NCBI GenBank assembly: GCA_965655095.1
Contig: OZ296650.1
Location: forward strand, 3,162,001-3,226,000
DNA length: 64,000 nucleotides
Source of the DNA: Haplodiscus bocki
Lineage: Eukaryota
Direction of reading: 5' to 3'
Positions within the stretch are counted from its first letter, which is position 1; every line of letters starts with the position of its first letter. This document shows positions 1 to 36,693 of this stretch, piece by piece. The notes under the pieces are model-generated. The model was not told the origin of the DNA. It saw nothing but the letters and a program-made list of their open reading frames with translations, and did not search any database. Position numbers and translations under genes: made by a program.

Positions 1-2679
1 TGATTTTTTCAAAAAATGAAAATGTACAGTTAGGTGTTCTGTACTAGACAAATTTATGAAAAAGAAGTTCTGCGCCATGACATTTCATCCACTATGTAAC
101 AATAATGTTCATGCGTTGTCCAAAACATATATAGAATGTTCGATGCTTCCGGAAAATAAAAACATGAGAAAAAGTTACTGGTCATAATCATCATTGAATT
201 GAGACAGTTGTGTTCATAAAATAAACGTCAACCATAAATTATGACAAGATGAAGGCCAATTTGATGGCGGATCAGTACTGATGTCGATTAAATATGTGCC
301 TTCCATTTATGAAGTCGTGAAAGCAGTACTTCGATTCTCTACATTTTGAGATTTTGTCAACATGAAATGTGGTTAGTGGAAGCAACTTTAACAATATGTG
401 GAGGTAACGTGTAGAGTTAAAACGATGCTTCTCTACTGTTGATGTCGGTTTTGAGTGTTTCCGATTTTGAAGATTTTACTGCTCTACAGACCGTTCAAAA
501 ATTGTTTGCGTTTCACAAATTCTGATATCTGAGTTTTTCGGAAGAATATATCTGGTTGGTTTTGAAGCCTACTTATCGGAGTTTTGAACTTCTTTCAAAA
601 TAAGTTTTGATTTTTCTGTGAAAAAATGCTTCTCGTTGTCAAAATAAAATATCCGCCGTTGAGCGAAATATGGCAACGTGTTATTCCTCTGAACTCATGC
701 CGAAGTTAGTTTTTGGATAAAGTGTTTTGATATTTAATCATTATTTCTTTAGCGTCAACTCGACATTGCCAATTTCCCATCCCTCATTTGAACCCTCTGA
801 AATAGATACTTTTCTCATGTCATTCGATCGTTTGAACTTTTCATATTGTGAATCGTGACTCACTGAAGTCTCAACTGACTATGGTCAACATCGTATGGCT
901 TCTGTCGACAAATTGAGCCAATTGTTTTGGGTAATTTTTTTAAATGACGTTTTCGTAGACGAAGAATGCTGGATATTGTTTGTAACAATCGTTGCCTGAG
1001 TACTAGGTGTTCTTCCACAATTTCTGAATTGCAAAGGGGAACTCCGCTGTTATCATCGTACATGAATTGCTAATGTTACTCATGAAGCATGAGAAACGTA
1101 AGAAAAATTGAAAAGTGTACAACATAATCGTAACTTTAAATTTATACCGATGGATCCCAAAGATGATTGGCATTGAACGAACAGGGTCAACGGGCTCCTC
1201 AAATTTGAGCATGTTAATGGTTTTGCTACGGAGGAGAAATTGTTTTCATTAATTTTCTACCCATCTACCGCCTAAAAGCTACAGAGTGTTAACGTGCATG
1301 TTCGCAGAACTACATTACCTATAGGTTTCTGACAAACTTGTTATTGTGTGCGTTATTTCATCGTGTTTTTGCTGGCATTGAAAGTTCTTCATGTTTGTGT
1401 TTCCTGTGAGGTTCGTTTCATTTTCTATGTGAAAAAACCAATCAATCGTTTTTACCATTGTTGGAACGAAATTCAAGATCGAATAACCATAATTCATATC
1501 ATATTTTCAATAGTTTTGACCGCAAAAAATTGCCTTCTCCGACAACATTGTTTGGATTCGGACGCGCTTTGTGCAGATATTACCGAAAAAGCTGCGGAAA
1601 ATACTTATTGATGAAAAGTACTGCCTCAACATTTATAGCAAACTGCGTGTTATCTTTGGCATGGAAGTACCACGCATCTGACTGTGGATCAACTTTGGGA
1701 CGCACTTATCAGAAAACGATTTCTCTTTGACGGAAATTTCAATAACTTTCGGTAAATACTGAATGTTTACATTCTTCAATTGTTCAAATGAAACTTTGAC
1801 AAGGTAAAATTGTTAACATATTTTTTTGCGGGGGAAAAAGACGGCCTCTTGCTGTTTCTTGTTTCAAACTTTCAAAAATCCCATCTGTTTTGTACAATAA
1901 TCAATTTGAATGTTTTATTTTTAGCATATACATAATCGCTGTTGACATTATTGACTGATATTTTATTGATCAACCGCTGCTCTGAGCAATTGTTTTCTCA
2001 ACTAAATCACCCGATTTTTTCAGATTTCATAATTTCCTTATAATGCAATGATTTTGGAAGCCAAGATTTTCCCAAGAGAAAAACAAGATGGTGAGAATCT
2101 TTCAAACATAGTTCTCTAATTTGTTAGACTTTCCGGTTTTCTACATGATGATGTTTTTTTGTGGTATCATTTTTCACGTCATGTCAGACTTCAGTCATAA
2201 ACAAAAGGGCATAATTTCAGTTTGCCTGAATTAGTAGTAAGATCTCAGAAAAACTTTATTTTTTCTCCATTTCTTGCCTCCACATTTTTCATGATTACTC
2301 TTTTCGTGTTAACTTGCAGCCCTGCTAAAGTGCACACTTTTCCGAAACACCTTTGGAAATTCGTATGAGTTCGCTCAACACTCATGCGTTCTCAGTTGGT
2401 TTTTCCAACTGAACCTTGTTGGCTTCTAAGAACGATTGTGATGTGCATTGTAGTCTCTTTCACTGAGGATTGGGGAAAAAACTTTCGAATTCAACGAACT
2501 CGCCGTGTACACTACTAATTGACGGGAGTCCGTAACATCGGGATGCGTTCCACTTGTATGGGTGAACGGAAAATAAATTCTTATATACGATTTTCAAACA
2601 ACACAAGATTCGCAATTAACACTCATTACATCGCCGCCTCTACGAGTAAATACCTGTTTGTTTTCTTTCTCTGATGAAT

Positions 2680-2717
2680 GCCTTGGTTTTGCTTCGTTAA
2701 CTGCGCAAAACCAAGGC
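2680..2717. promoter_or_regulatory. Perfect 13-bp inverted repeat GCCTTGGTTTTGC-N12-GCAAAACCAAGGC upstream of the polyprotein gene (function unknown)
   Basis: Arms read directly; identical arms at the equivalent position in all four large elements. Confidence 0.7.
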
Positions 2718-2897
2718 CCACATTGCATATATTTTTCTGGATACTGCTTTTTTCGAATTCATTAGATGCTACCGTTAATTGAACAGTTTGAAAGTTTTGT
2801 ACGTTGGTCCCATAATGGCGCCCACTCTTTACAATGTATTCACTATTGAAGATGATTTATTGATAAACTTTTGCGCGAAGTTTCTTGTGAAAGAGTA

Positions 2898-5800
2898 ATG
2901 CCATCTGGCAAGAATGATTTGAAAAGACGTCGCTGTGCAAAATGTGGACGCTTCAGTGAACGTAATCACTCCTGTCCAAATAACACCGACAATGTTTCTT
3001 CAACTAGCGAACCATTAGGAATTTTGTACAGTATACCTGACAGTAATTTGCTGGTCTCCTCTGTTGATGCCCTGCACTTAGAATCAACGTTGGAAGCGAT
3101 GGGACTATCCTGTTCCCCAACAAGCGGCATAATTGGGAATAAAACTAACATTCGCCTCAGTTCTGTTCAACCCTCGCACAGTCTTTCTATAACGGGTGAT
3201 GGTAATTGTCTTTTCACTGCCCTGGGCGTTGCCCTCGGTTTTTCTCATGAAAGTGGTCATGATTTGAGGAAACTTATTGTGAGTAACATGGACTCGGTGA
3301 CTTTTCCGGAAAACAGTTTGCAAACCTCAATCTATTCCGCTGAGTTCCCCAACCAGAACAAACTTCTCACGAGCCCAACTGTCAACCACTACCTGCAGAC
3401 ATCGCGAATGGCAGAAAATGGAGTTTTTGGCACTTGTGCGGAAATTTATACCTTTTGTCAAATTTTTAAATTGGACGTTTATGTATACCACAATATTTTG
3501 AAAAGTTGGTTCGTTTACAAATGCGACTGCTCAAATGACAGACAAGGAGTTTTCATTCAACAAACGCCAACTGGAGATCACTTTGAGGTAATTAGTGGCT
3601 TGACTGAAACATGCCACACTTCATTACTCCTATCAGAAGATTTAGCTGGTTCGAGTAGTCAATGTGGAAATTCAGCAATGAATACTGACTGCCACGTAAT
3701 CCAGACAGCACTTGAAGCACTTGATGAAACTGAGCCCTTGCAGAAGCGCAGACGGACTTCAGATTATCCAGTCGGCACACATTTGATCGACATTGGAGAA
3801 ACTAATACAGCTGTGACATCTTTTTGTTTGGCGGAAGCTCTTTGTGGTGCAGAAAATACTACAACGCAAAAAGGAGGCCAACCTCCAACTGCTGTGGAAC
3901 ATCGACAACATCAATTTCACAGATTGCCTGGAGGTGAGTTGACTGATGAGATTTTCCTGAATATAACTGAAAACTTTGTACCACCACCGAAATCGACTGA
4001 AGAATCAACCGTTGAAATCGAGTCAAAATTGGTTGTGACAGATACTGTCGATGCTGCCAACATTTGTTGCAAGTGCATGCGTCAAGCCACGGTATATTTT
4101 CCGTTCGACATTAAGGCCTACGGCAAAGTTGGATTGGTTAATAGAAAGTTCGGCAAAAAGCTGAAAAACGAAAATGTACATCTGTGTTGTTTCTGTTATA
4201 ACTATTGTACTGCACCAAAGGTTAACTGGCAAATGGCTTGGCCAGCTGTTTTTTTCACGCTCCTTTCTGATACTTCCAGACCCGAAGCTTCTTTAGTCGC
4301 TATTTGCTCGCTGTTACCCCTGGAAATAAGGCAACATTGGCTAGGGGTAATTACCCTTTTCCCTATCTGCATCCAGCGTGTTTTAAATCGGCCGCGTATT
4401 CTTGGCACTTGTACTGTTGATGGAACACAGAGATTGAAACGTTTCGAGCAACTAATGAGAACAATGAGACAAAAAGAAATGGCTGAAGCTTTGGACTTGG
4501 AACCGTATCCAAACATACGTTGCCCTTTTGGTTGTTGGACGTTTATCGAAGATCCTGGGTACATACCAGCGCAGCATTTTATAAACTTGATCGACAGAAC
4601 TTTCACATCATTCCAAGCGTCTGCATTCAAAAAACTCAGAGGCGCCAGACTCGACTTTTTGCGCCCTTTGATGTGTTTAAAAACGTTTCTAGGGGCTGCC
4701 ACAGTGCGGTTACATGAGAAAGAATGTTTGGTTGTGCAAACTTGTTCTGCGCATGACAGGGGATGTGCGTTACAGTTCTTGCATCCTCCCAGGCATCCGG
4801 AGCTGGGACGAATTCCAACTTTGTTTGAGGAACGATTAGCCATTGCATCACCTTCATTGTCGTTTGTGAGTAGCTTAAAGGCTAATTATGCTAGCCACAC
4901 CTATCAACTGTTTCGGAGCGTTGGGTCTTATAGTGGTATGAGTACTGTTTCATTGAGACGTAAACGGCGTTGGAACATCACTAGCAACCGTTTGTTCCAA
5001 GCTGAAGGAACCGCCATGTTTTTCAGGTCAGATATTCCCATTTTAATTGGACAATGGGTTGTTGAAGGTAAATTGATTGAAGATGTCGCCACTGATCTCT
5101 CTCAATATCAGCCGGAAAATGAAAAAATGGCGGAGCATGTCGGCGTAGATCTTGACACCTGCATTCGATTGACGAAGGTGATGGACAAAAACGAACAAGA
5201 ACTTTTGAGTAATGTGAAATTTCTTCAGTGCTACGCTTTGGCTCAACCAAACAATGAACATGGTTGCTCACCTCCTCCTCTGATCAATGATACTGGCGAT
5301 ACACTCTGGTTTCTTCAAGCAGCATGCTGCATATCTCCATTTTTATGTTCATCCATGGTGTCTGGCGTTAATCACGTTTTCGCAACAAATTTGTTTTCAC
5401 TGTTGCGTCATACATTTGCTGGGTTTGGAAAAGAAAGCAAGTTGCAGCGTATTTCACAAGCTCAAGCTGACATTGACACTATATTGAATAACGCGGCGAC
5501 TAGCAATGACAAGCCAAACATGATTTCAAACTTTTTTCAGGCGGGTTGCGTGGTGTTGCACGCATTATGTGCTGATTTATGCCATCTTCAGTTGAGCCAA
5601 AGAAAAGAATTAACTGAGAAAATTCTGCGCGACGTTACCGTGGATACGAAACACGTGATCGCTACAACAACTGATGTAAATAATCTGAGGAACAAGGTCA
5701 ACCCACCTCTCAACGTCTTCCTATTTGATGTCCAAGTTGAGCTTGTGGGATGTGGTTGTGGTTCTCGGGGTACAGATGCTGTAATTTTGCTTCGGCACGG

Positions 5801-8800
5801 TGGTCGCTTCTGCAATTTTTGGCGTATAGTGAAAGCTAACAAGTTTGCTGAACCTTTGTTGGACTCACCTGAGACCTTACTAGAAAAAATTCTACGAGGC
5901 TACTGGACTTTTTTAATCTACCGAGGAACTAACTCTAAAAAGGTGTCGACTGTAAAGTGGCACTATCTTAGTAATTTAACCGGTCAAGGATTTTTCATTT
6001 GTGACAAACATGATGTTCCGTTAACGAGGGACTTCCGACGTAGCAACTACTTCTGTGGATGTGGAAGGTCATCATTCCTCAGATGTGCCTACTCAAAATG
6101 CAACAGTTGTGTGTGTAAGAAACACTTCGACGAGGGAATGAAACATCCAAACTTACGAGTTTTAGTTCGACCTACAGCAGAACAAAAATTAACGCCTGAA
6201 AAACCGACCGCTGAAGCTGCAATCATTGCTACACAGTGTGAACTGAATTCCAACTTAGGTAGTTTATGTGAGCAGGACAAAAGCGTTGTTGAACCAGATC
6301 TATCCATCAACTGTTCAAGTCAAAACTCAAGTTCATCATCAATAGCTTCTTTTTTGTGCAACAACATGAACGCAAACTCGATCAGCGAAAGTGAATTGGC
6401 GATGAATAAATTGAACTTGTGTTCCGGTGAAAGGGCCATTGTTGCTGTACAAGAGGCTTTCAGAGAAGAAGACTACAATATTCCTCTCCACATACTGTTG
6501 AATTCTCGATGCAACTTACTGTACAGGAAAAAAAGTCATCCCATTTCCCTGACCGTTAAGGAGAAACGTTTCATGGAAAACATTACAGCTTCTTCAACAT
6601 CATCAACGCCTTTGCTTCAACCGGAAGGGCTGCTTTTTCCTTCTATTTTCTGGTCCCAAAGTTACGATGGCAGCATTGATGGAGCAATTCCAATATCCCT
6701 GTTCCAATCCGAAAGATACAACAAACAAGTGGGGTTTGCAGGGTTAGAGAACATGCTACGAACTCGCATCACTGATGGGTCGCTTTTAACCTCCAGTCAC
6801 ACATCATATCTTCAGTTCGTTTTTGACTGTCTTTTAAACTTACAACTGAGTAAAACTGATATTCGAATTGTGTTGAACAGAGGCTGGCAAGAATTGGGCA
6901 GTACGCCTACTAATTACCAGTACTTTTCCGATGAAACGTTCAAGTTTGATTGTGCAGAATCCCGGAAGAATGTGTGCGAAGCAGCAGCACTCATTAGAGA
7001 TAAAAACCCCACTTATTTTGTAACATACACATGTGGGCAATCTACTCACCCTGGCTTGCGGAAAATTTTTCAGGCTATTGACAAACTTTACCCGCCCGAT
7101 ATGACATCCAAAGAACTGAGATTATCTGTAATACAAAGTGAATTAATGCCTATGCTTAGATGTTGGCATCGCGCCTCACAGTATGTAATGCAATGGTTGA
7201 AATGTTCGGCCGAGCAACCTTTGGGACCAATCTCTCACTTATGGATGAGATACGAGTGGCCAGACGAAACTTCGGCCTTTCCACACATCCATGCACTAGT
7301 GTGTACCGGAGAAAACAAGTTTGGTCCGGAAGTGCAATCCCGAGTCTGCTGTTCAAAAGAAACATTCATGGGCGCCTTAAGGAAATGCTGTCCAGCGTTA
7401 TCGGATAGCGAACGGTTCCGGTTGGGAGAAATTTTCCAAAAATACCAACGGCACGATTGTGGCAAGGGAAAAAATAGATGTAAAAAGAAAACTGATTGGT
7501 TGGGAAAGCCAGTGTGTAGGGTACCTAAATATCCTGCATCAGTTGGGTTCTCTTTTAAAGAAATACAACCTAATTACTCGAAAGAAACTTGGGACTTGTT
7601 GAGAAACATGAAATTGTCCTATATTGACCCTAACTCTTCAACAGACAAAGTTGAAGAAGAACTTAAAGCTGGAAAACATCACTACCCTGCTGCTTACAAT
7701 GAACACATGTCACCAACAAATGCTGCGTTGTTTGCTTTCACGGAAAGCAGTACGAACGTCCAAATTTGTGACGACGAAATGTGTTCACGATACGTTGCAA
7801 AGTATGCTGCCGGTGTGGAAGGTCGGGCGTTCACAAAGATATTAGCCTCTGCTGGTGAGAATGAAGTGAAAGTCCAAACAGAACCTATTGTGAACGAAAA
7901 AATCGCCGGAGTCCAAACCAGCGTTACCAAAAAACGTCAGGATGATGATAAACGCAAATCTGTAACGGGCAGAATTGTTAGCATAACTGAATGCTTGTGG
8001 TAGGCTTTGCAGTTGCCGTACGTTTGCACAAACATAGATTTCATTCATGTACCAACAGTTCCCAAAGAGTTCAGATCAGGAATAGTGATTGAAAAAAAAA
8101 TTGCGAGCACCATGAACTTCAGTGCTGTTTTTGCCGAAGCTGTTCGAATTCGGAAAAACTTTCTGAAGCTTCCAAAACATCGACAATTAACAAAAAATCA
8201 AGAATTGTTGTTGGCAGATGTGGAAGCGAGTTCAATTACGCCTGACAAAGTGACCATTTTTGGCCTGAGACCACCGGAGCTTCTGTTTGTCAGCAGTTTG
8301 AAAAGTTATTTCAGTTGGTTCGTTAGATTCAAATACAACATTTTGAAAGGGAAAAGTAGTCATGAGATTTTGTTGAGCCGTGCATCGTGTAATGATTTTT
8401 GGGTTGATTGCCTTGGATACGTAATCAAGATACGCCCACCCGCTATCTTTGATTTTCTTGATTTTTGTGCAACAAGAAGTGGTAACCCGAGGGACGAATT
8501 TTTGAAAGAGGAGTGCCGCAAACACATTGTCCCAAATTGCAAGGAGCCAACAGTTGCCCCAGACTAGTGGCGTACAATCTTTGTTTCTCAGATCAAAAAG
8601 CCATAGTGGTTTTCACAAATACTCTGCCCAGTAGTCCAACAAAGTTCTTGTTGCACTTTGTGCTAACATTTGGTTCGTTTGACACCGAACTGGACATTCT
8701 CTCTGTTTCATCTCTCGGGGAATCTTTTGTAGCTGCCAAACTGGTGGAGCGTAACAACATTACTGTATCAGTCGTCCGTCTACTAGCTCGCCGGTACCTT

Positions 8801-10996
8801 TTGCAACAGCTCCGCTTTGTGCCAAGATCCTCTAAACTCATAGACAAGTTTTTGTTGATGGCAAACAGCGTTCTAGGAGAGGCACTGTTAGAAAACAATT
8901 TGTATTTTGCATCCGGGGTACCAGCTGTCTTAGATCGCACTATTTCTGCCGACTCCGAAGAAAATGTTGCTGTAGATTTGACAATGAACAAGAGTAGATT
9001 GGTGGAGTTCTTACACACATGTCAAATGGGACTTCCAAGCGAAGAAAGTATGATAGATGCTTCTGTAACTGCACCCGTTGCTTGGAAACCCGACTTTGGT
9101 AGACATCCTAGCCAGACAGTGAAGTCGTACTGTGAACAGACTAAGATTTTGAAACATTTAGTTGAAATCGTGGACCTGTACAGAGGAGGAACACAAAATT
9201 TCGTCAGACATCAAATCATTGCAGGGGCACCAGGAACGGGAAAAACGTTCATCATGTTGAGAGCTCTGAGTTATGCAATATGTCAAGGACTCAATTGCAT
9301 GGTAACTTCGCTGGCGGCCGAAAGGTCGGCTGCTTTAGCTGGCAAGCATCTGAACGCTCTCATTCCTTTCCCGGTGGAAAAAAAAGGAACTGTTAATTCT
9401 TTGTCTCGAGTAGCTTTGTCCAGCTTGCAGAAGTCACCGGACAAAAGTCGGTTACTCCAGAATTTGGATGTATTGTTCGTTGAAGAGATTTCGATGATCT
9501 CTAGTGAACTTTGGGCGGCCACGGACCACGTTTTCCAAATCATCTGCTTGAACTACGTGCCATTTGCTGGGAAACTAATCATTGCCACAGGAGATTTTTT
9601 TCAACTTCCTCTACCAAAAGGAAGTTGTCTGATCAGTTCTTCATTCCCTTTAACAACTTTTCATTTTAGTTTCCTCCAACACTTTGTGCGTATGCAAAAT
9701 GAAACAGGTCAGAAAGTTTTGTCACTCATGTCAACTTTTCCCAGAACAACTGCCATGGGAAAGCAAATTTGGAATTTGATCGAGCGAAATTGCAATTTCG
9801 TAGAATGTTGGGATGACGTACCAAATGATGCAATTCGAATTTTTGCTACTCGCAAAGCAGAAAGATAAGCGACGTTGAAAAAAATTAATCAAGTGAAAGA
9901 CAGCGGTTCCCAGTTCCATGAAAGTTCATCGACAGATGAAATGTGCGTGTCAAGTACGGACAACTGGATAGAAGCTTCTGGAGCGGTAACAAAGTTTCTA
10001 AACAAGAAATGTTTGGAGCCACAATCGTTGTTTCTGTTCCCCGGAGCAATTCTCCGACTCACCGTGAACAAGCCAAATGTGATGGCTTTCCAAGGACAAC
10101 TCTGTGTTTTGGTCTCCCTGGACTCATTGGCTGACAACGGAACAGTAACTGTTGCCTTGGCACCTGCTGGTTGCCGATCTATTCCACCAGTCTCTGTAAT
10201 ACGAAGTACCTGGAGATGTATTGTCCTTACAAAAGAAATTGGAGTGAACATTCGTCTAAACCACAGGACTATTTGTCGCAGAATCCAATTCCCCCTCAAA
10301 TTGTACGTGGCGTCAACTATTCATAAAACTATGGGCGAAACACTCCCAACAGTTGCTACGCAGATTGTTGGAGCTCAAGAGTTTTCGCTTTGGTTGCCAG
10401 AGCAACTATACGTAATAATGAGTCGTGTTCGATCACTGGTGGACATCACTTTCGTGGGATCGAAGCAGTCCAACGAAGGAGCCATCCTGAGTTTGCTGAG
10501 TAAAAAGTCACAGTGGTCGGAGCTGAGTACCGAAATCCTCCAGAAGTGTTCTTCCCGTGACCCAACGATCTTCCATGGTGCTACAAACCCTTTTCCATCA
10601 ACCATCAGTATACCGCAGGAGAATGTTGGCTACTGTTACCTTATTCAGAGCGTCCCCCAAAACAACTTGTTATATATTGGTTCAACAATGTGCCTCAATC
10701 GACGAATTCGTGAACATAATGTTGGCTTGGGAGCATCATTCACACAGGATCCCTCTCGAAGACCTTGGGTTTTGTGTGCTTACGTGACTGGTTTTCTTGC
10801 AAGCAGCTCAATGGAGAGAATAGGGTTTTTTGAAAAACGGTGGCTTGAGGCAGTTACTAAAGTGCTTAACTTGAGGAAGAAGTACATCTCCCTCCCGAAT
10901 GCATTGTCAACAGCAGAAAACTTAATCATAAATTGGCCTCATAAAGAAGATGTCTTGAAATTGGTAATTTGCTGTAATCAGCCCATATTACTTTAG
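2898..10996 (+). pseudogene. Disrupted OTU-Rep(HUH)-Pif1 helicase-GIY-YIG polyprotein, copy A1
   Basis: ORF pieces 2871-8003, 8007-8567, 8513-9868 and 9875-10996 are collinear with the intact B1 protein. Motifs: GDGNCLF...HF (OTU), PTYFVTYTC / RYEWPDETSAFPHIH / YVAKY (Rep), GAPGTGKT / VEEISM / GDFFQLP / TIHKTMG / QLYVIMSRV (helicase), GYCY..LYIGST..RRIREHN (GIY-YIG). Lesions: TGG>TAG at 8001, a 1-nt deletion near 8530 and TAA at 9866. Confidence 0.9.
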
Positions 10997-11410
10997 TACC
11001 TTAGAGAAACACTAACAAACTACTTATCAAATGCTTTGCCGACTGTGAAATGTGACGAACTGAATGCTTTCTCACAAAAAAACCTGAAGTTCATTATTTA
11101 TTCAACACATGAAATGAATTTTTAAACGTCCAACGTATATCTTCAATGTCCCCGGTGGTTTCCAGAGGTGCACGTATGAAGTTTTTCGTATGTGTGTTTT
11201 TGCTTTTTGTTGCGTTCAAAGAACGCTGAATTTGTTAATTCTAAATGTTGTTTCTCTTGCTAATTACAACAATTCAATTGTTCGATTTGTGATGTCTTTG
11301 AGAGTAGTCAGCAGAATATTTAGCCAACGTACTCTTTTCCATTGAGTTTAACGTTTAAGTAAGTTTAATAAAAAACTTTCTCGAAATTATTCATTTGCGG
11401 AAAAGAATTT

Positions 11411-11457
11411 GCTGCACTTTTCCATGCTGCACTTTTCCATGCTGCACTTTGCTGCAC
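11411..11457 (+). repeat. Short tandem expansion of GCTGCACTTTTCCAT
   Basis: About three copies in A1; a single copy at the equivalent site in A2 (~45394). Confidence 0.8.
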
Positions 11458-11936
11458 AACATGCTTTTTGGAACCTTAAAATAGGTACATTAGGTTTTCA
11501 TAAACTGCACCTTAACAATGAACGTTCCTGATTGCCCACTGTATTTAAAGTTGATTGATTAGTAATTTTAACTTTTTGCACTGCATTTTTAGCGTATGCT
11601 TGTCGAACACTTTCTTTTTTGTTTGTCCTAATAACGATATACTCCAGATAATGTATGATGAAAGCCCTGTACTTCTTCCTGTTTCGAGCGCAAGGTGAAA
11701 CACTTGGTAAAACGATAATTATATACCAAAAAGCAGACATACTCAAATGAGCAAATAAATATTTAGAGCTTTTTGAACAAAGTTTTTTTCAGCTCTTGCG
11801 TTTTATACTCCAACATAATGCTAATGACAGTTGTTTTGTGTGTTCCATCATAGTGTACCTATGCTGTTGGAATCATTATTTGTCGTTTTTTTGTCTTCGC
11901 CCCTTGTCGTTGCTTTTCAATGTTCTGCAGATCGAA

Positions 11937-12702
11937 ATGAAACATCTTATCATAGCTGATTCTCTTGGAAGAAGACTTGCCAGGAAGCACGAAAACCTGG
12001 AAGTGAAGTTCTTCCCTGGTGCCACGGCATCTTGCCGTGGGGTAATTGACTGTTTAAGAAACCTAACAACGTTTTATGAATCAATCATTCTGTTCATCGG
12101 GGGAAATGGACTTACAAGCCGGGGCAGACAACGGGGAAAGAGTCCTGAGCAAGTGAGTAATTTATTCAACACAATGTCAAATTGCTTGCGACTGAAAACG
12201 TTTTAGAAAAATACTGGTTGCAACATCAGGGTGCATTGTGTATGAGTCGATACGCGGGCAATATTTCCCTGCGAAAACATTTTCCAATTAATGACCAGAG
12301 CTTCAAATGCAACTGAAAGTATTTTCTTTTTTTTTTCTCCAAAATTTGAAGAAAGTTGAACAAAATCAGACGAAGTGCATCTTCAGCTATAAAAAATTTG
12401 CTAACTCTTAGGTGGTTCGAGACATTATGTACCTCGTGCGTCTGGCCACTCCAATGTGTTACAGAGTATACTGTCTGGCTCTAGTCATGAGATCCGAACC
12501 TTGCTTCCTAGATATCAAAAGGGTGAACGATGGACTCAGAAACTCTTCGGGTCAATACAATTTTGTGTCGGTTGCTAGCAAAATGAGCTCCGAGAGGAAT
12601 TTGATGGATGGCTTGCATTTATCTCGTCACGGTGTTTCCAACTTGATGTACATTCTAAGGAAAAGAGTTTTGGGTACTGTACTACGTTTTTCTGACCTGT
12701 GA
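11937..12702 (+). CDS. Two-exon SGNH/GDSL-like hydrolase, 168 aa (exons 11937-12152, 12412-12702)
   Basis: Blocks IIADSLG, FPGA, IGGNG and DGLHLS. Phase-0 intron GTGAGT...CTAACTCTTAG joins ...SPEQ to VVRDI...; same intron position in family B. Confidence 0.85.
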
Positions 12703-14024
12703 TAAGTACAAGTAACAAAACCTTCGTGAAGTAGTTGTTGATTAATGAACGCAGTCTCTAACATGGTACCCTGTGTTTGATTTTTTGGTAATGGCGTGTT
12801 TGTTCCTTTTCCTCGTTCTTTTATTTCAAATTATGAAAGTTGACTGGAAAATTGTCATAATGTGGCCGACAAAATTCTGATCAATTGTAACTGTTTAATG
12901 CCCACTGTTTTAACAGAGCGTCGCAGAATACGTACACCTGCTCATTGTCGACTGGGGTTCTGAAAGCAATCACATCCTTTTGCAGCTGAAAGAGAGAAAA
13001 AAGTGTAGTGGTAAACTTGGACGACCAATGTTATGAAGGCTTCTTTCGGTAAATTCGATTAAACAGATATTCCTATTTTATCATGCAGCAAACAAATGGG
13101 ACTTATTGGTTGTTTTACTGTGCATACAATTGGAATCGACTTTAAAGTGATCTGAGTTTTTAGTTTTTGTAACTTCTTAACAAAGTTAAATGATTTTCTT
13201 CAATAAATGTCGGTGTATTTCGTGAAAACTTTGAATTTGGCATGTTGTGTTGTTTTTTTCTGTATGTTAGTTTCTTTCAGTTACGTTTTTCCATAAACTT
13301 TGAATACTGCTAAACCCATGATTGTTGCTCTTTGCTCAGCATTGACTTTATGCCTGTTGTTTTTTTGTAGCTAATTGAACTTCTCATTGAAATGAAACCT
13401 TCCACAGATTACTTGCCTTGAAATATTGTTTTACGTAGCTTCAAGTTAACTTCATTTGTTTAAGTCAAAAAAGGCCGATTGTTTCATTTCTTTTGAATTG
13501 CTCTCATTGTCTGTGCAATGAATTGTTTTTTTAAAAAAACATTTTTCTTTCATGTTAGACTGGTTGTCATATAAAAGAACATTTTTACCCTGAATTAACA
13601 CGTTTTCAATCCGTATACTCTTTTCATTTGCATTTACAGCCAATAATATTCAGTGAAAGTTCATTGAAGATTGTAATTGTGACCAAACATACTCCTCATT
13701 CACTAAAGACTGAACTTTCAGACCGTTGAAACGTGAAAAAATGTTGAAAGAAGTCAGTTGCACCATTTGCGTGGCATCACTTAAAGGAACATGTAAATTT
13801 TTTCAATAGAAAAATAGCAAGAACTTTTCTATCAAACATTTTAATGTATACTAACGATACTCACTGTGACGTGGAGTTTTAATGAAATTGTATTTGATCA
13901 TGTTGAACTTCATCTTGTTTGTTTTAAATTTTGAGAAAAATTAGTTCTGCGTCCTGAATAGGTTGACAAAATGTCACTGTGTAAACCGCGTTGTATAAGA
14001 TGATGCTTGAAGAGATTGTTCCAG

Positions 14025-15032
14025 ATGATGACCACCCGTGTAAATACGGCCCAAATAACTGCTCCCAATTTCTTGCGCAACAGTGAGAACACATATATCC
14101 GAGGTGTTGTTTTGGTTTTTAAAAAATTTGATCGTCACCTACAGTTATTTCGACCGCAAGCTGTAAAAGCTAAAAGAATGACCCCTGACACAAACTATGA
14201 TCGCCTAATCATCATCGGCGAAATCCAGACGCGAGAATGCTTTGCAATAATAGCAGATTCTGCGCAGAAAAGTTCACTCCTTTTTGCTGACCGAAAATTA
14301 ACTATTGGTGCCATCGTTGATGTGAAAGAAGCTATTTTTTCCAACTCCTGCCTTGGTAACGATCGAACCAATCCAATTTTCAACGTGTCTCTTCCGTTAG
14401 AGGTAGTTACCGACGACCTGCCAATGGAGCCTATTCCTATCGATTTGAATCCCTCGACGGGTGCAATGTTCCACTTCTGTCTCCCACACCGACCCCTTTC
14501 GTTTTTGCACGCTATTCCTGCGTTTCCGACTTGTTCCGGTTTTTTGTGCGACAGAAGAAATAGAAAAAACGAAAGCATTTGTGCATGTTTGCAAAAATCA
14601 ACTTTGTCAGCATGGGTCATGTCATCAAGGGTAGTTAGTCAGGACATACTGAACGAAGACGATGATCCTCTAACAGGTGATATTCTGCAAAGTTTGTCAT
14701 TGACCAAACTTTTTTGTGAGGAAGCTATCATTAGATCGGCATACACATCAATTGACAGGGGACTTTTGAGAGAAGCTGTCATGCGTGTTGCTAACCATGT
14801 TAATAACAATGGTGGGTGGAGAGTGTCAGGCTTCTACAAAACTGCTTTAACAGAAGAAAACATTGCGCAAAATGTTCAAAGGGTGAGAATTTGTCGAATC
14901 ACTCCAGCGATTGAGATCCCTGTCAACTTGAAGTACAATGTGATTCCTTGGAATGGAGATGATACAAACCAGCCACCACGCCTTTTTCACGCTAAGCAAA
15001 TTTGCCGGCAAGTAACAATGCAAACAACATGA
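14025..15032 (+). CDS. ORF3, conserved ~335-aa protein, putative OB-fold/Zn ssDNA-binding protein (1-nt deletion alters the last ~12 aa)
   Basis: Clear homolog in B1 (30780-31787). Beta-rich N-terminal half with LTIGAIVDVKE and a CSGFLCD..CAC cluster. The fold is an inference. Confidence 0.75.
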   Translation: MMTTRVNTAQITAPNFLRNSENTYIRGVVLVFKKFDRHLQLFRPQAVKAKRMTPDTNYDRLIIIGEIQTRECFAIIADSAQKSSLLFADRKLTIGAIVDVKEAIFSNSCLGNDRTNPIFNVSLPLEVVTDDLPMEPIPIDLNPSTGAMFHFCLPHRPLSFLHAIPAFPTCSGFLCDRRNRKNESICACLQKSTLSAWVMSSRVVSQDILNEDDDPLTGDILQSLSLTKLFCEEAIIRSAYTSIDRGLLREAVMRVANHVNNNGGWRVSGFYKTALTEENIAQNVQRVRICRITPAIEIPVNLKYNVIPWNGDDTNQPPRLFHAKQICRQVTMQTT

Positions 15033-15780
15033 GATGAACACTTAATTGAACCAACAAAACTCAAACAAATCTTATGTCAATCACTGTTGTGATAATTTTT
15101 ACTACAGTTACAAATACTTGATTACCGGTTCAACACAGGTATTAGAGACATTTAAAACAAGGTGCAATGAATCATTCAGCAAGCTACCGAAAGTTGTTTG
15201 CATGCAACATCGACTGTCACAAGGCATTCGACCGTAAGGTGTTTGCCCAAAACTAATAGATCAATTGTCGTTAAAGAAAATGAGAGTTGTCATGAAGTGG
15301 ATTTGTTTTATGTGCATCCAATTGAACTTACAAGGGTTGCTACCATTCAAGTTACTGAGATTTCACTTTGTATTACTGGTCAACTTTATTTAGCACAGTT
15401 TAAGTTGTTTTCTGTAGTTGATACGTATAATGTTCATTAAAAATTAAATGGGTCATTCAGGAAAAGTTTGTGTGCAGCTCTTTATAACTAATCACCTCAA
15501 ATCTAATTCAATGTCCACTGAGACAGAAAATTTGCTACAGTTTTGTATAATTTTAACATAATTTTGAAAATTTCTGTTACAAATAATTCGGAATTGAAAG
15601 AAAAAACTGCAACGAGTTTTTATGAATTGGCCCAAGTAAAAATTTTGCGGCACCGACATTTTCCCAGCCCAGTAGTTCAGTACAAACTTTCAGCAATGCT
15701 TGATTCCCGCCTTCAGAATGTTGACGGATTTCAGATGAAGTAGAGAAACTGACTTTTTACCTGGTTTTTCTTCTTCCACG

Positions 15781-16384
15781 AAAAATCGTCATAACCGTCA
15801 TTATTTTCGGCAATTTGACCAAAACTGTTTTTTTGTCGAAAAATTATCTTTCATTTGACACAGGTCCCGTCACGTTGTGACGAAAGCTTACATCACTTTT
15901 TTAACATCAAATTGGGAGAAATGACAAAATGATCGATTTTGGCCTATTTTTGACAAATTTGAAAGGTCATATCTCCTAGGGTAAAAGGCCCCGGCCAAAA
16001 ATTTTTGGCATGTAGGTAGTTCACAACAATTCTGCTTCACACAAAAAAATTGGGTCCGATGCTATGGTTAAAGTGTGGAGATATTGCGAAAAAAACATCG
16101 AAACCTGCCAAAAAACAGGATCATTGCGTCATATCTCCCCAACCAAAAGAAAACAAATGATGTAAGTGCCAAAAATCTTCATACATCGGCGGACTCTATC
16201 CACATGCATAGTTTGATCAAAATCGTATGGTTAGGTTTCGAGATCGTGTTTTCTACGGGTGGGTGCGGGTAAGTGTAAACTTGGTTATTGAAACTCGGCA
16301 CAGGGGCCCCTCCCCCGCCTCGCAACAGTTTTGTGTCGCTAAAAAGCTTGACCACCCAGTGGAGGCGACGGTGAAAATTACCAG
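15781..16384 (+). repeat. 3' subterminal/terminal region of A1, with blocks shared with family B
   Basis: Blocks CGTCATAACCGTCATT, ATTCTGCTTCACAC, GCCAAAAAACAG, AGTTTGATCAAAATCGTATGG, AGGGGCCCCTCCCCCGCCTCGC and TGACCACCCAGTGGAGGC recur near 32820-33421, 49520-50121 and 50570-51170. Confidence 0.85.
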
Positions 16385-19300
16385 AAGGCGTGAGGTTTGA
16401 ATCGGTGTTTCTTTCGTGTTCAGATTTATTTTCTGCGACAAACGGGCGTAGTCCTGTCATTGTGCGTCAGTCAACGTGAAGCCGTGAAGCAGTATGTTGT
16501 CAATTTTTGTGACGAAGACGAAAAATGCCTTTTGGGTGGCAAATATTGACAGAATTATCGTCGTCAATCCTTATTTCAGATTGTTGTTCTAACTTCTCTG
16601 TCTCCTGCATGAGAGGTAACTTTGTTTTCCTGTAGACGCACTGGATTTGCCGATGCAGTTTGGGAAAGGTGCAGTTAGGCGGTGAATACGAAGGGGCCGG
16701 AAGTATGCTGAGCAATGAACAGTTGTTATCTTGGAACAAAATATGTTTTTGTTAAAATTTAAGTTTAACAGTTACTTTTAATCTTTTCTTCAGCTACCAA
16801 AATTCTGGGTTTTTGTCCAATTCATTAGTAAAATTTATCTGTACTTAAAATATGAAAGGTGAGTAAAGTTTTGTTTTAACTCTAAGTTTTTATCCATACT
16901 TTTGCTGTTTCTTTTGGAGCTGTTCCCAGAAATTTTTTTGTCTCATTGCTGTTGTTGTTTCTTTAAACAAAGAAAAAACTTGACTGGTGTTCAATTACGC
17001 ACTCCAAAGTTATGTTTGGATTCTGCCTTCGTGGAAAAAACAATAATTGTTTTGTTGTTTCTAATGTTTTCTGCAGGGATGAACTTGACAATGCAGCTTT
17101 GCAATGGGATACTAACATTTAGTGAACAAAAATCAGGATATTGGAAGCGGGTGGTCTCCACGAACCTTAAGCGTTGTTTGAACCTCGAAAATCACGAGCA
17201 AGTTTCTCCAGTTTCTCATACCTATGAGATTCATTTTCAAGGTTTTCAATGATTGTTATAACTTACATTGGTTTTTTGAAAAATGTGTCTGATTAATATC
17301 AACCACCCATTCCGCCGCTCTCGAAAATGAATTTCTGAATAGTTTTGTTGAATGAAATTTTAATGTTCAAAAAAAAAGAGGCAACGGAATGATGACTTGT
17401 TTTTGATCGACACCAAATGCTATTTTTTTTCCGGGCTCAGGTGGAGTTTTTTATTGGAAACGTTGCACTACGCATCTGGTAGGTAATTTATTTTTTTGTT
17501 GTTTTGTATTTTAATGGATAACACGATTCATCACAATCATTTCTTCAATTAAGGCTTCCTGCGCTGTAGCTGCTTCTTTTTGTTTGAATCAAGCGTTTCT
17601 TGACGGGAAAGGTCCGGTTTCCCCTTGTGTTGGCATGAAGTTTCACTAACCAATAATGTTTTTCAATCAGCACATAAGTAGAAAAGTAAAGATGGCTACT
17701 GCACGCTTCCTCGTGGCTTCATGTTTTCGCGTTAATTCGCTTTCTTCATTTGTTTACAACGTTGTCCGAGCCAATTTTCCCTAAATAATTACGTTTTTTA
17801 TTCATGGCTTCCCATTGACATGACTGTCCTGCTTTTACGGTCAACATTTTTAAGAAAAGCACCCAACCTTTTTTTTCCGCAATAATGTCTTCCTAAAAAT
17901 AATTTCCTTTTTTGAAGACTGTACTGACAATTCGAAATTTCCGATATTTTCGCGAAACTAATAAGTTTCGTTAGTCCAGATTGAGTAACGAACGGGGCAT
18001 TTCCTCAGCTATTTAATTCCATCACTTGTTCAACATTTTACCGAATTTCAGATTCGTCCTTCCCTTCTTTGACTTTTTCTTCCTGATTTTAAATTATAGA
18101 ATTTCCAGAAGCAAATTATTGTTTTTTATTGTAGAGCTTATTATTTTATTCACAATGTTTTTCTAATTTTGCTAATTCCCATCCTGATACTCTGATCCCC
18201 CAGAGTCATTTGGAATTTTGGTGGACGGAAGGCAATTCACTTCTGCTACCTTATGCTAGTTCTCTTACGACTGTTCACATTAGCATATGTTTCTCCGCAG
18301 ACATATATAAAACATCGTTAATGTTTGTAAAGTGATTGATTAAAAATAAAAACGTATTTCATCTTTAACTTCATAAATATCTTTTATATGCGTAACTTTT
18401 TCTCACACGCAATGGCTGGCTTTGGCAGCCTTTTTCTGCGGAATAATATTTCCGTTAACTGCCAATTTTCTCACTTGGACTAGCCTGGTTGTTTAAAAGT
18501 CAATGCTTTCGAATCTTAAGGTCCACTTTGAGGCTCTTTCTTTCCTGCAGTGAAGATTTTATGAAATGGCTCCACTGCCAGAAATTCAAAATTTCAAATA
18601 TGATTTACTTGTAAAAGATCATCGGGAAGTGGATGTTCATCTAATTGTCAGTAGACGGAATCAAGACAATAAGAAGCCAAGGCGGGATAGCCATATTGAT
18701 CAATGACTTTAACCGATTCAATTTTTCAAGTTCAAGATGCAAACTATATCACAACGATTAACTGTGTCTGAATGATGCTAGGCAGTTGGAATTGCACACA
18801 ACTATGGCACTTTTTGAACATCCTTGATCCATTCTTTTTATGTTTTCATCAAGAGATTTCGTATCTGGAGCCTTGAAATTTTCCCCTCTGTTCCATCAAC
18901 GTGCCTGTTCATCTATCACCGTTGACGAAAGGACATGAAATAAAACAACGAATAGAGTTTGCGGAATTTGTTACTAAGCTCTTGATTTCAAGAAGCTTTC
19001 CAACGTTGAAGTAATTTAAAAAAAATACTAAATTCATTTTTATGACGCCTAAAGACTGTCAGTAGTGGTTTACGTTGTGTATTTCAATGAAATAGGCCGT
19101 GAATATATGATTTTGAGAATTTGTCGGAGAGAAAATGTGAATTCGACGGAGAATGATGGAAATGTAGAGCTTCCCATTGTTCCTCCCAACTGAAACAAAA
19201 TTTGTACCAACAATTCTCTGTACCCCCTTATTTTTATGAAATTGTTATTGGATGCTTTTTTTAGACTGTCAAATTCTTGAGCTTTTTCGTATCTTAAATC

Positions 19301-19647
19301 TGGTCTCTTTTCGTCTTCTATACGACATTTTCTTCGAAACCTAGACTGATCTTTTCAACTTTACATCTGTTAAAACCAGCTACTTACTTCATAGATGAAA
19401 CAAAGGTACTGATTTTTTTGGGCCCTTGAATATAAAATTTTTTTACCTGCAAAAACTGAATTGAATTGATGCCTGGTTTACACCAGTGAAAAAGACTACG
19501 AACCTCTGAAAACTTTGTTGGGTCTTAATTTACCCAACTTCAGTTACTTGGTGCCATTTTTTGCAAAAAGTTTTCAAGTTCCTAAGTGTTTTGTGAAACT
19601 GAAAAATTACGTTGTGTTCGATTGAAGTCAATAAAACTGCTGAGGAA

Positions 19648-19685
19648 GCCTTGGTTTTGCTCCTGTGCGTTCGCAAAACCAAGGC
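19648..19685. promoter_or_regulatory. 13-bp inverted repeat, 12-nt spacer (B1 copy)
   Basis: GCCTTGGTTTTGC tcctgtgcgttc GCAAAACCAAGGC. Confidence 0.7.
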
Positions 19686-19946
19686 GTCTGGTTTATGAAT
19701 GGTTGGAATTGAATTATGATTTTTTACAGTACTGCCTTATCTTTTTCGCGGCATCGAACCTGAAATTTAATTAGGCAGGCAACGGTTTGTAATTGAACCG
19801 TAAAAGACTTCGCTCAAACGACAATTTGATGTATTTACCTATTATACGAATTTCCCTGCTAATTCTTCAACGTGTGTTTGTATTGTAACATCTTGTTTTT
19901 TCATATAGTCATGATCCCACTGAATTAATGTCTGTTGTGTTTTACA

Positions 19947-22900
19947 ATGTCAAAACAAAACAACAAAGGAAACTTGAAGCGTCGTCGTTGTACTTCCTGT
20001 GGACAATTTGTTGGAGAACATCATGTGTGTGCAAAATCAATTGAGCTGGAACTTCAGGTCAACGAGCCTTTAGGAATTTTATACAAAATTCCCGATGCAT
20101 CAGTTGCTGTGTCACCTACCGCGAGAACGGAGATACACAGCTCGCTGAACACTTTGGGGTTGATGGACTTTTTAAAGCCTACAAAAACAGCTATCGGAAA
20201 CGATAGAGTTATCTGCTCCATGCAGCCAGTCCGGGTAACAGCAGTGCTTGGGGACGGTAATTGCCTTTTTTCTTCTCTGGCAGTTGCTCTGGGACTGTCA
20301 CATGAATGTGGCCCAATCATACGTAACATTATTGTCAGCCACATGAATTTAATCAGTTTCCCCCCTAATAGCCTGCAAACATCTGTTTACTCCGATGACT
20401 TTCCCAACCAACATCGTGTTTTGAGTTGTACTTCCGTCGATGAGTACCTCCGCGAATCTAGAATGGCAGAAAATGGTGTTTTTGGAAGCTGTGTAGAAAT
20501 ATATTCATTTTGCCAAATCTTCAAAGTAGATGTTTTTTTGTACCATGTTCCATTCAAATCCTGGATGATTTATGAATGTTCCTCCAACGTAAATAGAAAA
20601 GGAATTTTCATTCAACAAAACCGGAATGCAAATCACTTCGAGGTGATAACAGAGCTGGTTTCAATTGGTCCTGAAAGCTCCAGCTTATCGCAAGTTGCAT
20701 CAATTAATCGCCCTCCTTCTCAATCAAGCGAAACTAATCATTGGAGTCAAGCCTTGCAGAACTGCGAAGGAACTGAAACTGAACCAGCTTCGAAAAAAAG
20801 CAAAGTCAATTCTGATTACACCTGGGAAGAGCACCCTGACCCGCTCGCATTAAGTCTCTTCGCCAATTCTGTATCTACCAAAATGAAGAAACTTTCGGCC
20901 TTGGAAACATTATCAACAAATTCAACGAACCTCCCAAAGAACGATTGTTCACAAATGCTGGAACCCCCATGTTTTGACTTTTCCCCAACAGATAGTGTTT
21001 CAGGAAATATGCACACGAACGGCGAGTGCCCCAATTTGGGCGGATGTGACTGTTGCGCAAAATGCATGCGCCAGTCAACAGTTCTTTACCCTTTAAAGTT
21101 GAAGAGGAAGAATAAATTTGATCTTAAAAACCGTGTGTTTGGAAACAAGCTAACGGAGCCCATTGTTGTTTTATGTAAGCTCTGTCTTCTCTATTGCACA
21201 ACCGAAAGTTATGATTGGTACAATGCTTGGCCCTCTGTGTTTTTCAGCCTATTGAGTGATCAAGACATGCCAGTTAGAACCCAAATGGATATTTTGTCTT
21301 TGTTACCTTGGGAATTGAGACAGCAGTGGATGACATCCATGCACTACTTTCCCCTGTGCGTTCAAAGATGTCTAAGTCGGAAACGGATTGCTGGGAAATG
21401 TTCCGTTGAGGGGACGCTTCGTTTGCGTCGTTTCCACGAACTCATGAAAACCTTGAAGCAGACTAACATTGCTCTTGCCCTGGACAATGAACCTTATCCC
21501 AACGTCCGCTGCCCATATGGGTGCTGGTGTTTCATTGAAGAATCAGGTTGGATACCCGCAAATCACTTCATCAATCTTTTTGAAAGAAACTTTACCTCGT
21601 TTCAGTCCTCCAGCTTCCTGCATCTAAGAGGAATTAGGTCCGACTTTTTGACACCATTTGTGTCCCTGCGCCAGTTCTTAGTAGCGACTACAGTGCGAGT
21701 TGATGAAAAAGCGGGACTCGTGGTTCAGGCTTGCTCCAGGCACTCAAGAGGCTCCAGTGTGCAGTACTTTCATCCGCCATCACATACTTCGCTGGTGCGA
21801 ACTACAGTGAATTATGAAGAACGTCTTAGTGCCATCGCACCCACATTGTCGTTCATCTCAAGCATAAAAGCCAACTTCGCCAGTCATACGTACCAATTGC
21901 TAAGAAGTGTTGGCTCTTACAGTGGATTGAGCACAGTCCGATTGAAGCGGAAAACGCGCTGGGATTTCACTAGTGACATTTTGTATCATGCTGAAGGCGT
22001 CGCTTGTCATTTCAGAGAAGACATCAAAACAATGATTCGTGAGTGGGTAAGACAGGGTAAAATCCTTGATGACGTAGCTTCGGGAATGCTGGATTATGTA
22101 CCGGACAAAAAGAAAGTCAACAGTTGTTTGTCACAGGCCACTTCAATAGACTTACAAACATGCCTGGACCTCACGAAAATAGTGGAAATGAATGAAAAAG
22201 AATATCTCAACAATGTTGAGTCGTTGAGTTGTTACACTCTCGTTCATGGGAATGATGATTACGGCTGCTCTCCACCTCCTCTGGAAAATAGAGTAAGCAC
22301 AGTATCGTGGATTGTGCAGGCTGCAGTTTGTGTTTCCCCAATACTTTGTCGATCCTTAGTGAACTCATCAAAATACAGTGTGACACTTAGGCCTTTGTTC
22401 ACTTTACTCAGGAAAGTGTTGCTTGGCACCGCAAGAATGAATACAGCAAAAGTTTTATGGCTTGTTAGAAAATCCGAACAAGCAGTCTCAGCTGTCATAG
22501 AACAAACTAACACTGATGACAAAACAGAGGGAACAACCGACTGTTGTTGTTTTGTAGGAGCAAGGTTTCTTTCAGAAATTTGTGACACCATTCAACACGT
22601 TCCCTTAAACAAACGGAAGAATATCGGTTCAGCCACAACAGAGCAAGTTTCGTACAACATGACTCATGCCATTTTTACGACAGGTTCCCCAAAAAATTTG
22701 CGGAACAAGGTGAAACCACCGTTAACCCTGATTATTTCCGACAATGAATTCGAATTGATTGCAGTTGGAACGAAGGATGGAAGCAGCAAGGGAGAACCGA
22801 GGTGGTTGGTTAGACATGGAGGGAGGTTTCAGGGGTTTTGGCTCATTGAGAAAAGTAAAAAATTTGCCACAAAAACAGAAGGCTCTCCGACTGATGCCCT

Positions 22901-28004: not shown

Positions 28005-28102
28005 AAAGTCGTACTTTAGGAGAAAGCTGCCCAAAAACTTATGGATTAGTTTGAGATAATTGTTTTACTTGCACACAAACTTCCTTGCCTTGACAGCCAT
28101 AC

Positions 28103-28249
28103 GCATCGACTGCATAGTGATGCAATGGTGAATTTCTCTTTATGTTATGCTGCAACCGCATCGGCTGCAGAGTGATGTACCAAGTAGCACGTGCAGCAAC
28201 ATCAACCTTTTTGCTGGAAAATATAATGCCTCGACTGCATAGTGTTGCA
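28103..28249 (+). repeat. Three imperfect 22-bp direct repeats GCATCGACTGCATAGTGATGCA downstream of the polyprotein stop
   Basis: Copies at 28103, 28158 and 28228; also retained in B2 (~62878, ~62932, ~63003). Confidence 0.75.
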
Positions 28250-28581
28250 TTATCTATTTTGCAGTTGAGATGATTTGTTGCTAATCACTTGTCTGTGTCT
28301 GTTTAATTCATTAGTTTGATGGGATTGACTTTCACTGAACCTGATTTGATGGACTTTGATTTTGGAAGCACTAGAAAGAGTCCATTTAAAAAAGCGCCGT
28401 TAATTTTGGACAATAGAAATCAGCTAACTTTCAAGTTTTTTCGGGAAAAAAATATAATCATACGTTAAATGACGAATTTTGACATTGTTGATTGAAGCAC
28501 TCTTGTTACTGTATCCCCGTATTCGGGGATGATACCTGAAGCTGCAGAAACCAACGTTTTTCACAGTGCTTCCACATCATT

Positions 28582-36655: not shown

Positions 36656-36693
36656 GCCTTGGTTTTGCTCCGTTATCTGCGCAAAACCAAGGC
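36656..36693. promoter_or_regulatory. 13-bp inverted repeat, 12-nt spacer (A2 copy)
   Basis: GCCTTGGTTTTGC tccgttatctgc GCAAAACCAAGGC. Confidence 0.7.

Follow-up and report, generated by a model that had tools for sequence, protein, structure and literature searches.

A hairpin at a fixed fraction of element length in Helitron-like transposons of Haplodiscus bocki

Helitron-like elements in the genome of Haplodiscus bocki carry a strong internal hairpin, replaceable in sequence, that lies about one fifth of the element length from the same end in elements of 1-22 kb. As a pattern this fixed-fraction rule is well supported, and it probably reflects a timer or ruler that couples two motors at a ratio of about 4:1 and is measured from the likely termination end. 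In the families of clade 1 the hairpin is an inverted repeat with 13-nt arms and a 12-nt spacer. We tentatively read this repeat, with somewhat less than an even chance of being right, as a single strong stem-loop about one fifth into the element, likely on the displaced strand, that serves as a timed signal for second-strand priming. The evidence was drawn wholly from one genome of 1.5 Gb.

The repeat and the elements that carry it

The window, that is the whole stretch of DNA analysed, comprises 64,000 nt of the forward strand of H. bocki (GCA_965655095.1, OZ296650.1:3,162,001-3,226,000). Self-comparison and the junctions showed that the 64-kb window is a head-to-tail array in the order A-B-A-small-B. 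Element A1 (16,947 bp) occupies positions 1-16355, with its left end 592 bp before the window, and is followed by B1 (16356-33392; 17,037 bp from the CCAGTGG end to the TGACCAC end), A2 (33393-50092; 16,700 bp), the non-autonomous, gene-less N1 (50093-51141; 1,049 bp) and B2 (51142-64000; 16,893 bp, running on to a window-equivalent position of 68,034). The large elements are Helitron-like, about 17 kb long, and are organized in self-targeted tandem arrays. Such arrays also house at least nine further autonomous families, and in families X, Y and Z the gene cassette is inverted relative to ends of the same kind.

The only intact polyprotein in the window (2,685 aa) is encoded by B1 at 19947-28004 on the plus strand; the genes in A1 (2898-10996), A2 (36891-44979) and B2 (54723-62780) are interrupted by stops or frameshifts. 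The B1 polyprotein contains an OTU-like region, an HUH motif (nt ~24297, HLH) and a YxxKY motif (~24804, YVAKY), a PIF1 helicase (Walker A at ~26232) and an SLX1-like GIY-YIG domain (~27681). In Pfam searches PIF1 (E 2e-9) and GIY-YIG scored above the cutoff, Helitron_like_N (E 1e-5) and OTU below it, and a weak match to Helraiser (7lcc, E 0.005) was obtained. The fusion of an HUH Rep with catalytic tyrosines to a PIF1 helicase, which defines the Helitron superfamily, is thus present. For the C-terminal GIY-YIG (27603-28001) the nearest solved structures are SLX1 structure-specific endonucleases (E 1e-8); a literature search for Helitron and SLX1 together returned nothing on this subject, judged by title.

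Downstream, ORF3 (335 aa) is encoded at 30780-31787 on the plus strand, with an orthologue at 14025-15032. ORF3 gave no Pfam match and a poor predicted structure (pLDDT 38). Weak feature-based matches to POT1, MEIOB and CTC1 clusters (0.88-0.91) make it a candidate OB-fold single-stranded DNA-binding protein, to be taken as a lead only. It was not detected in the examined copies of families C and F/G, which may depend on ORF3 supplied in trans.

The position of a hairpin is given as the distance from the CNAG end to its near edge, as a percentage of element length. The repeat is found at 2680-2717 in A1 (3271 bp from the CCAG end, 19.3%), 19648-19685 in B1 (3292 bp, 19.3%), 36656-36693 in A2 (3263 bp, 19.5%) and 54420-54457 in B2 (3278 bp, 19.4%). 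All four are assigned to the minus strand, which for the hairpin at 2680-2717 denotes the probable strand of folding. The copies match exactly and no such repeat arose in any of 100 dinucleotide shuffles, while the stability of the hairpin taken alone is unremarkable, being equalled in 2 of 30 shuffles of B1. The repeat ends 180, 261, 197 and 265 bp upstream of the ATG, in agreement with the 180-270 bp of the initial annotation. Its distance of about 3.2 kb from an element end also held (3263-3292 bp); this end was at first called 5', but judging by the target site described below the transferred strand probably terminates there, at its 3' end.

That the arms are conserved amid DNA that does not align was confirmed with six families, whose leaders of 3.1-3.8 kb align just over their first ~40 bp and across the repeat, except that A and E share 1.9 kb and C and E some 160-300 bp around the repeat. 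Apart from these family E blocks, the repeat is therefore conserved as strongly as the terminus. Family E is a chimera, with its first 1.9 kb A-like (74%) and its repeat region C-like; the element is shorter, and its hairpin still lies at 19.35%. No conserved reading frame indicative of a hidden leader gene was found among the inter-family alignments listed. The spacer varies at a constant 12 nt as proposed, but not freely, because its first T and last C are invariant and appear as G...A on the minus strand in all nine clade-1 sequences.

A scan of the 1.5-Gb genome in which spacers of 10-14 nt were permitted gave 70 sites with exact arms and none with the reversed control. Among the genome matches listed, all 50 spacers are 12 nt long and oriented alike. 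Two family variants with one base changed in the arms added 23 sites (14 and 9). All 73 sites listed fall inside these elements, 218-314 bp upstream of a polyprotein N-terminal match. Conversely, 86 of the 97 clade-1 polyprotein matches were checked, the other 11 being left out of this count, and 85 have the repeat with at most two mismatches; in the single copy without it a deletion has fused the copy to a small element. This retention supports the view that the repeat is a strongly selected cis element, and neither absence from other members nor abundance outside the elements, which had been named as observations that would speak against it, was encountered.

Within the 64-kb window no further half-sites were found with up to two mismatches, and viral contigs gave no match to the repeat. 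Two metagenome contigs matched, both family-A copies 95% identical to copies in the genome; they are not independent and probably represent host DNA in the sample. In contigs from four runs, the kind of which is unrecorded, no joint fell at the repeat; such contigs cannot reveal starts.

Hairpins in related families and scaling with element length

The claim that the repeat precedes every polyprotein gene stood for clade 1, in the 73 sites listed, and fell for its relatives, in which the hairpin is placed elsewhere. In distant families (30-38% identity), 20 of 20 sampled copies were without the 13-12-13 sequence. Their gene cassette is reversed relative to the element ends, and each carries one strong hairpin of unrelated sequence. 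The clade-1 hairpin precedes the polyprotein, that of X1-X3, Y1 and Y2 separates the genes, and that of Y3 follows both of them. Gene-less elements of about 1 kb have a hairpin in 41 of 41 distinct sequences (46 extracted) at +195 to +203, including N1 of the window, where a 13-23-13 hairpin is found at 50290-50338 on the minus strand, 197 bp (18.8%) from the CCAG end of 1,049 bp. The N1 left arm shares 8 of 13 bases with the clade-1 arm, the other five pairs being altered on both sides, and the hairpin is the positional equivalent of the clade-1 repeat and probably homologous to it. The repeat is not tied to the polyprotein. An earlier promoter reading, based on gene-less elements that seemed to lack the repeat, was dropped when their own hairpins were found.

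Across 15 autonomous families of 12.1-22.1 kb the hairpin lies at 19.3-20.8% of the length (mean 19.7, sd 0.5; leader versus remainder r=0.984), and in 14 small families of 1.0-3.2 kb, for some of which positions come from 50-nt window scans accurate to about 10 bp, at 18.8-21.8%. For all 29 families the log-log slope is 0.991+/-0.006, the ratio of remainder to leader 4.09 and the intercept 12+/-23 bp. The six clade-1 families, with unalignable leaders and lengths of 14.7-18.1 kb, are confined to 19.30-19.46% (r=0.9987). As the families share ancestry, formal p-values for these relations are overstated.

When intervals longer than 12 kb were taken from junction to junction, the most stable hairpin fell at 19.1-19.8% in 38 of 44; of the six exceptions, two are composites in which a junction was missed and four are single copies with a deletion or a chimeric structure. 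The rule had been set down from clade 1 before seven distant families were scanned, of which Y1-Y3 were taken from a helicase search. Five of the seven lie inside 19.1-19.9% and two just outside, at 20.3% and 20.6%. This range had itself been fixed in advance for the last four, Z1-Z3 and Y3', and two of these four missed it. The most stable hairpin of the whole element is at 19.8% in Y1 (22,094 bp), 19.7% in Y2 (13,221 bp) and 19.3-19.4% in Y3 (18.0 kb), and Z2 (19.7%) and Y3' (19.2%), a close relative of Y3, are likewise inside. Z1 is narrowly outside, its hairpin at 20.3% being tied with one at 6%, and the 20.6% of Z3 was obtained after post hoc correction of a missed junction. For Y1 a length of 20.7 kb was rejected in favour of 22,094 bp, because the suspected point showed no junction and both ends recur in a 2,089-bp derivative.

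Several families are less clear-cut. X3 is ambiguous at 19.8, 20.8 or 21.0%, depending on the copy and on the ori-like end chosen; in N6 a 99-bp repeat at 7% outranks the hairpin at 20.7%, which comes second; and among 7 copies of a 3-kb family the fixed-fraction hairpin ranks first in only 2. A 1,425-bp element has a bulged hairpin at 20.7% that was overlooked by the arm-based scan, and in one small family a second 13-12-13 repeat occurs whose sequence differs.

Some further observations concern repeats in and beside these elements. A 1.43-kb gene-less family (e.g. G000:C1:187140056-187142927) contains a near-perfect inverted repeat of 99-109 bp some 100 bp inside the CTAG end and, at 20.7%, a different 13-12-13 repeat. 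Directly beside an X3 element lies a 3.58-kb tandem repeat (G000:C4:110951361-110961429); it includes an 18-4-18 hairpin and a sub-repeat of ~870 bp and has just 50 bp in common with the transposons. Tandem arrays with a period of ~2.1 kb contain the last 1.39 kb of family Y1 (e.g. G000:C6:61219593-61227258, C1:12564469-12584320), and one 2,089-bp copy from them has a hairpin at 19.4%.

Polarity, folding and possible roles of the hairpin

Junctions read ...GACCAC/CCAGTGG, and the sequence to the right of the slash follows the downstream element. After GACCAC-type (ori-type) ends, 114 of 119 distinct sequences begin with CNAG, which corresponds on the minus strand to CTNG on the 5' side of the cut, and in host DNA before the opposite end only the central A is kept (11/11). 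The target on the minus strand is thus CTNG/NT, and since each insertion rebuilds it, the arrays grow on themselves. By analogy with IS91, a CTNG target likely marks the minus strand as the displaced strand, which would be transferred with the GACCAC end first and the CNAG end last. Accordingly named, the conserved end of ~40 bp at 16356-16395 (...CTGG-3' on the minus strand) is likely the termination (RTS/ter) end, as suggested by the IS91 and Helitron literature, and the conserved end of ~600 bp at 15746-16355 (5'-GTGGTC on the minus strand; A and B 65% identical) likely the initiation (LTS/ori) end. The terminal 40 bp at 16356-16395 and at the other CCAG ends contain two direct repeats, the second of which, ACYAGRDGGCG, we take to resemble the CTCF motif. 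Near the 3' end a 5-bp stem is found 14 nt in for N1 and N2 and is poorly kept in A, B and D; other families have GC-rich hairpins about 47 nt from the end. No inverted match between the ends was obtained in self-BLAST at E<=1e-5, a search too insensitive for 8-bp repeats.

Folding of the internal repeat was compared between the strands. On the minus strand all 117 stem cells of the nine clade-1 sequences pair; 11 pairs are invariant, and two vary on one side to T.G, which on the plus strand is a C.A mismatch. Of 20 family hairpins, 14 are more stable on the minus strand, 4 on the plus strand and 2 equally so on either (p=0.015); the differences are often below 1 kcal/mol, and N5 and N7 favour the plus strand. 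Several families have C-GNA-G loops on the minus strand, a type of DNA loop described as very stable in the accessible parts of PMC13037366 and PMC3201870. Stem variants and loops favour minus-strand folding, which would also be the form adopted in vivo. Because the bias tracks the termini and not the gene, a structure in mRNA is disfavoured. The loop of N5 equals that of N3 in reverse complement, which amounts to a micro-inversion, fixed in one family, of the segment between the arms.

The covariation test proposed in the initial annotation gave a divided answer: double-sided changes were seen between N1 and N2 and between Y2 and Z2, and in 0 of 13 clade-1 pairs. The frozen clade-1 arms therefore point to sequence recognition, for which a double-stranded binding site fits too, and suggest that sequence is read in addition to shape. 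A presumed resemblance of these arms to RUNX-, SOX- and NR5A-like host factor motifs was dropped, as the arms have no common motif across distant families.

Of the three functions initially offered, a single-stranded hairpin for second-strand synthesis fits best; an operator cannot be generalized, and a loxP-like site is not supported. Plasmid sso sites lie mostly upstream of the dso and are hence exposed late, according to the accessible text of PMC4595007, and the mitochondrial OL, in the available part of PMC6056714, folds and primes once two-thirds of the genome has been displaced. The hairpin agrees with both in its fixed orientation (50/50) and in its late exposure, at ~80% from the putative ori. 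In the priming model, RepHel would nick CTNG/GTGG at the TGACCAC end and peel off the minus strand. The hairpin would be exposed after ~80% of the displacement and primed almost without lag, and the complementary strand would be copied back across this 80% while the fork completes the last 20%. With back-copying at about 4.1 times the speed of unwinding, a ratio fitted to the positional data, the polymerase would meet the protein-held 5' end as the ends are joined. Priming too early would lead to collision with an unjoined end and priming too late would expose more single-stranded DNA; selection would thus hold a ratio and not a distance. A ratio that is constant over a 20-fold size range suggests two processes with matched completion, and the near-zero intercept would require lag-free priming, which random priming would not supply. 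A pause of the helicase at the hairpin is one possible route to it.

An unlikely alternative is that the hairpin is an internal origin or loading site on duplex DNA, perhaps as a cruciform, from which two motors at ~4:1 depart, or on which they converge, so that both ends would be reached simultaneously and paired. The fixed ratio and the near-zero intercept would follow without any priming lag, the hairpins of X1, X3, Y1 and Y2 are perfect repeats with no strand preference, and the invariant clade-1 arms suit protein binding. This reading leaves the minus-strand bias and the bulged, minus-only hairpins unexplained, and a second motor is not evident in the element.

Two further readings are each improbable. 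One is a structural ruler, a single-stranded nucleoprotein rod or loop ending at the junction and at the hairpin, in which the 80% arc would be packed about four times tighter than the 20% arc. Stoichiometric geometry would yield a ratio free of offset across a 20-fold size range, and many families encode the candidate single-stranded DNA-binding ORF3. Against it stand the drift of the ratio among lineages (19.3-21%), the failure to find a coat-like protein, the putative fold of ORF3 and its lack of detection in the C and F/G copies examined. The other, to which we give a similarly small chance, makes the hairpin a substrate of the element's own nuclease, such that a nick at the stem base or cruciform provides a 3'-OH primer or resolves a replication intermediate at the meeting point of two processes. 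SLX1 cuts branched DNA, the C-terminal GIY-YIG matches SLX1 structures (E 1e-8), and its fusion to the helicase could remove the lag. However, the spacer is flipped in 0 of 50 sites, no truncations or joints cluster at the repeat, and cutting here would break the transferred strand.

An operator or promoter for the polyprotein, bound by a dimeric protein, is very unlikely as the general role. Such a site would agree with the placement of the 73 listed clade-1 sites 218-314 bp upstream of the polyprotein match, with the constant spacer and invariant arms, and with X and Y1/Y2 hairpins roughly 330-820 bp upstream of the second ORF. But hairpins also occur between the genes, past the second of them in Y3, and in elements that have no gene, so that autoregulation as first suggested cannot be general; transcription moreover offers no reason for length scaling, and the favoured strand follows the termini and not gene direction. 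In clade 1 the repeat may in addition serve as a promoter element. Finally, a loxP/FRT-type recombination site, suggested by the 13-bp inverted arms around an asymmetric spacer, can be dismissed: loxP/FRT crossover occurs in a 6-8 bp spacer via a cognate recombinase, whereas the present spacer measures 12 nt and those of relatives 2-27 nt, the array junctions are 3.3 kb away, no exchange of flanks at the spacer was seen, alignments within families continue across the repeat as far as the element end, 0 of 50 spacers are inverted, and a Pfam search of the encoded proteins found no recombinase domain.

If the timer or ruler reading is correct, the hairpin would be the first replication signal internal to a rolling-circle transposon of eukaryotes. 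Helraiser requires double-stranded circles, and how they form from the single strand is left open in the accessible text of PMC5876387, which names lagging-strand synthesis or a circovirus-like primer as possible sources; a hairpin at a fixed fraction offers a direct handle on this question. Under the timing model the 4:1 ratio would read out the speeds of helicase unwinding and second-strand synthesis from sequence alone. The rule itself, if true, is a cis constraint expressed as a ratio and not as a distance, undescribed for transposons in the literature searched; neither a length-scaled internal hairpin nor this element group was described there, with coverage of subscription journals being limited. 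It would restrict the deletion derivatives capable of multiplying, provide a test of element ends for use in annotation, and lay down a design rule for cargo size in vectors built on this site-specific group.

Comparison with known systems

Phage Mu has, in its strong gyrase site, an internal cis element for which placement with respect to the two ends is important. That site is central (50%), acts through gyrase on duplex DNA and belongs to a DDE transposon, in all of which it differs from the hairpin.

The closest functional parallels are signals for second-strand synthesis. The sso of rolling-circle plasmids and ICEBs1, as presented in the accessible part of PMC4595007, is likewise an orientation-specific stem-loop, usually located upstream of the nick and exposed late; it is active on the displaced strand, where the present hairpin would fold. 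The sso differs in being bacterial, in typically comprising several stem-loops and in being primed by RNA polymerase or primase, where for the present hairpin priming is only predicted; no fixed-fraction placement is mentioned in that part of the source. The mitochondrial OL (PMC6056714, accessible part) is a single stem-loop that folds at a set displaced share, two-thirds, and starts the second strand, in an organelle genome that varies little in size and is copied by its own polymerase. In the elements described here the share is four-fifths, and it is held over 1-22 kb by hairpins unrelated in sequence.

With Helitron1/HLE1 elements such as Helraiser, so far as the available portions of PMC4778049, PMC5876387 and PMC11417382 describe them, the present elements share the HUH Rep with PIF1, an upstream OTU, non-autonomous derivatives and a CTRR-3' end. 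Most families fit the latter with a minus-strand 3' end of CTGG or CTAG; that of Y1 is CTTG. They differ in the 5' end, which is GTGG (TTGG in the Z3 lineage) and not TC, in the target CTNG/NT in place of A/T, in their self-targeted mixed arrays and in the SLX1-like C-terminus. For HLE1 the same sources describe the palindrome as a terminator some 10-12 nt before the 3' end; here the hairpin lies 0.2-4.4 kb inside and is scaled with length.

Helitron2 elements (Helentron, HLE2) resemble the present group in that their genes may run in the reversed orientation with respect to the termini and in self-insertion (PMC3627910 and PMC5148889, accessible parts), and one HLE2 family with a captured GIY-YIG is noted in the available text of PMC11417382. 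The T/T target and T-start of HLE2 were not seen here and no AP endonuclease domain was found in these elements; the HLE2 hairpins and asymmetric inverted repeats (8-17 bp) described in the accessible parts of PMC3627910 and PMC5148889 are terminal. Judged by the end and target definitions in the available text of PMC11417382 and PMC3627910, the elements are filed in neither HLE1 nor HLE2.

IS91, as described in the accessible part of PMC13181058, shares the tetranucleotide target on the ori side (CTTG next to oriIS, CTCG at terIS), to which the CNAG found at 114 of 119 ori-type ends corresponds, together with the absence of target duplication and distinct ori and ter ends. It is bacterial, small and lacks a helicase (PMC5876387, available part), whereas the present elements encode a 2,685-aa protein with PIF1 in a 1.5-Gb genome. 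The palindromes that the accessible part of PMC13181058 describes for IS91 are subterminal only, in contrast to a hairpin one fifth of the element inside.
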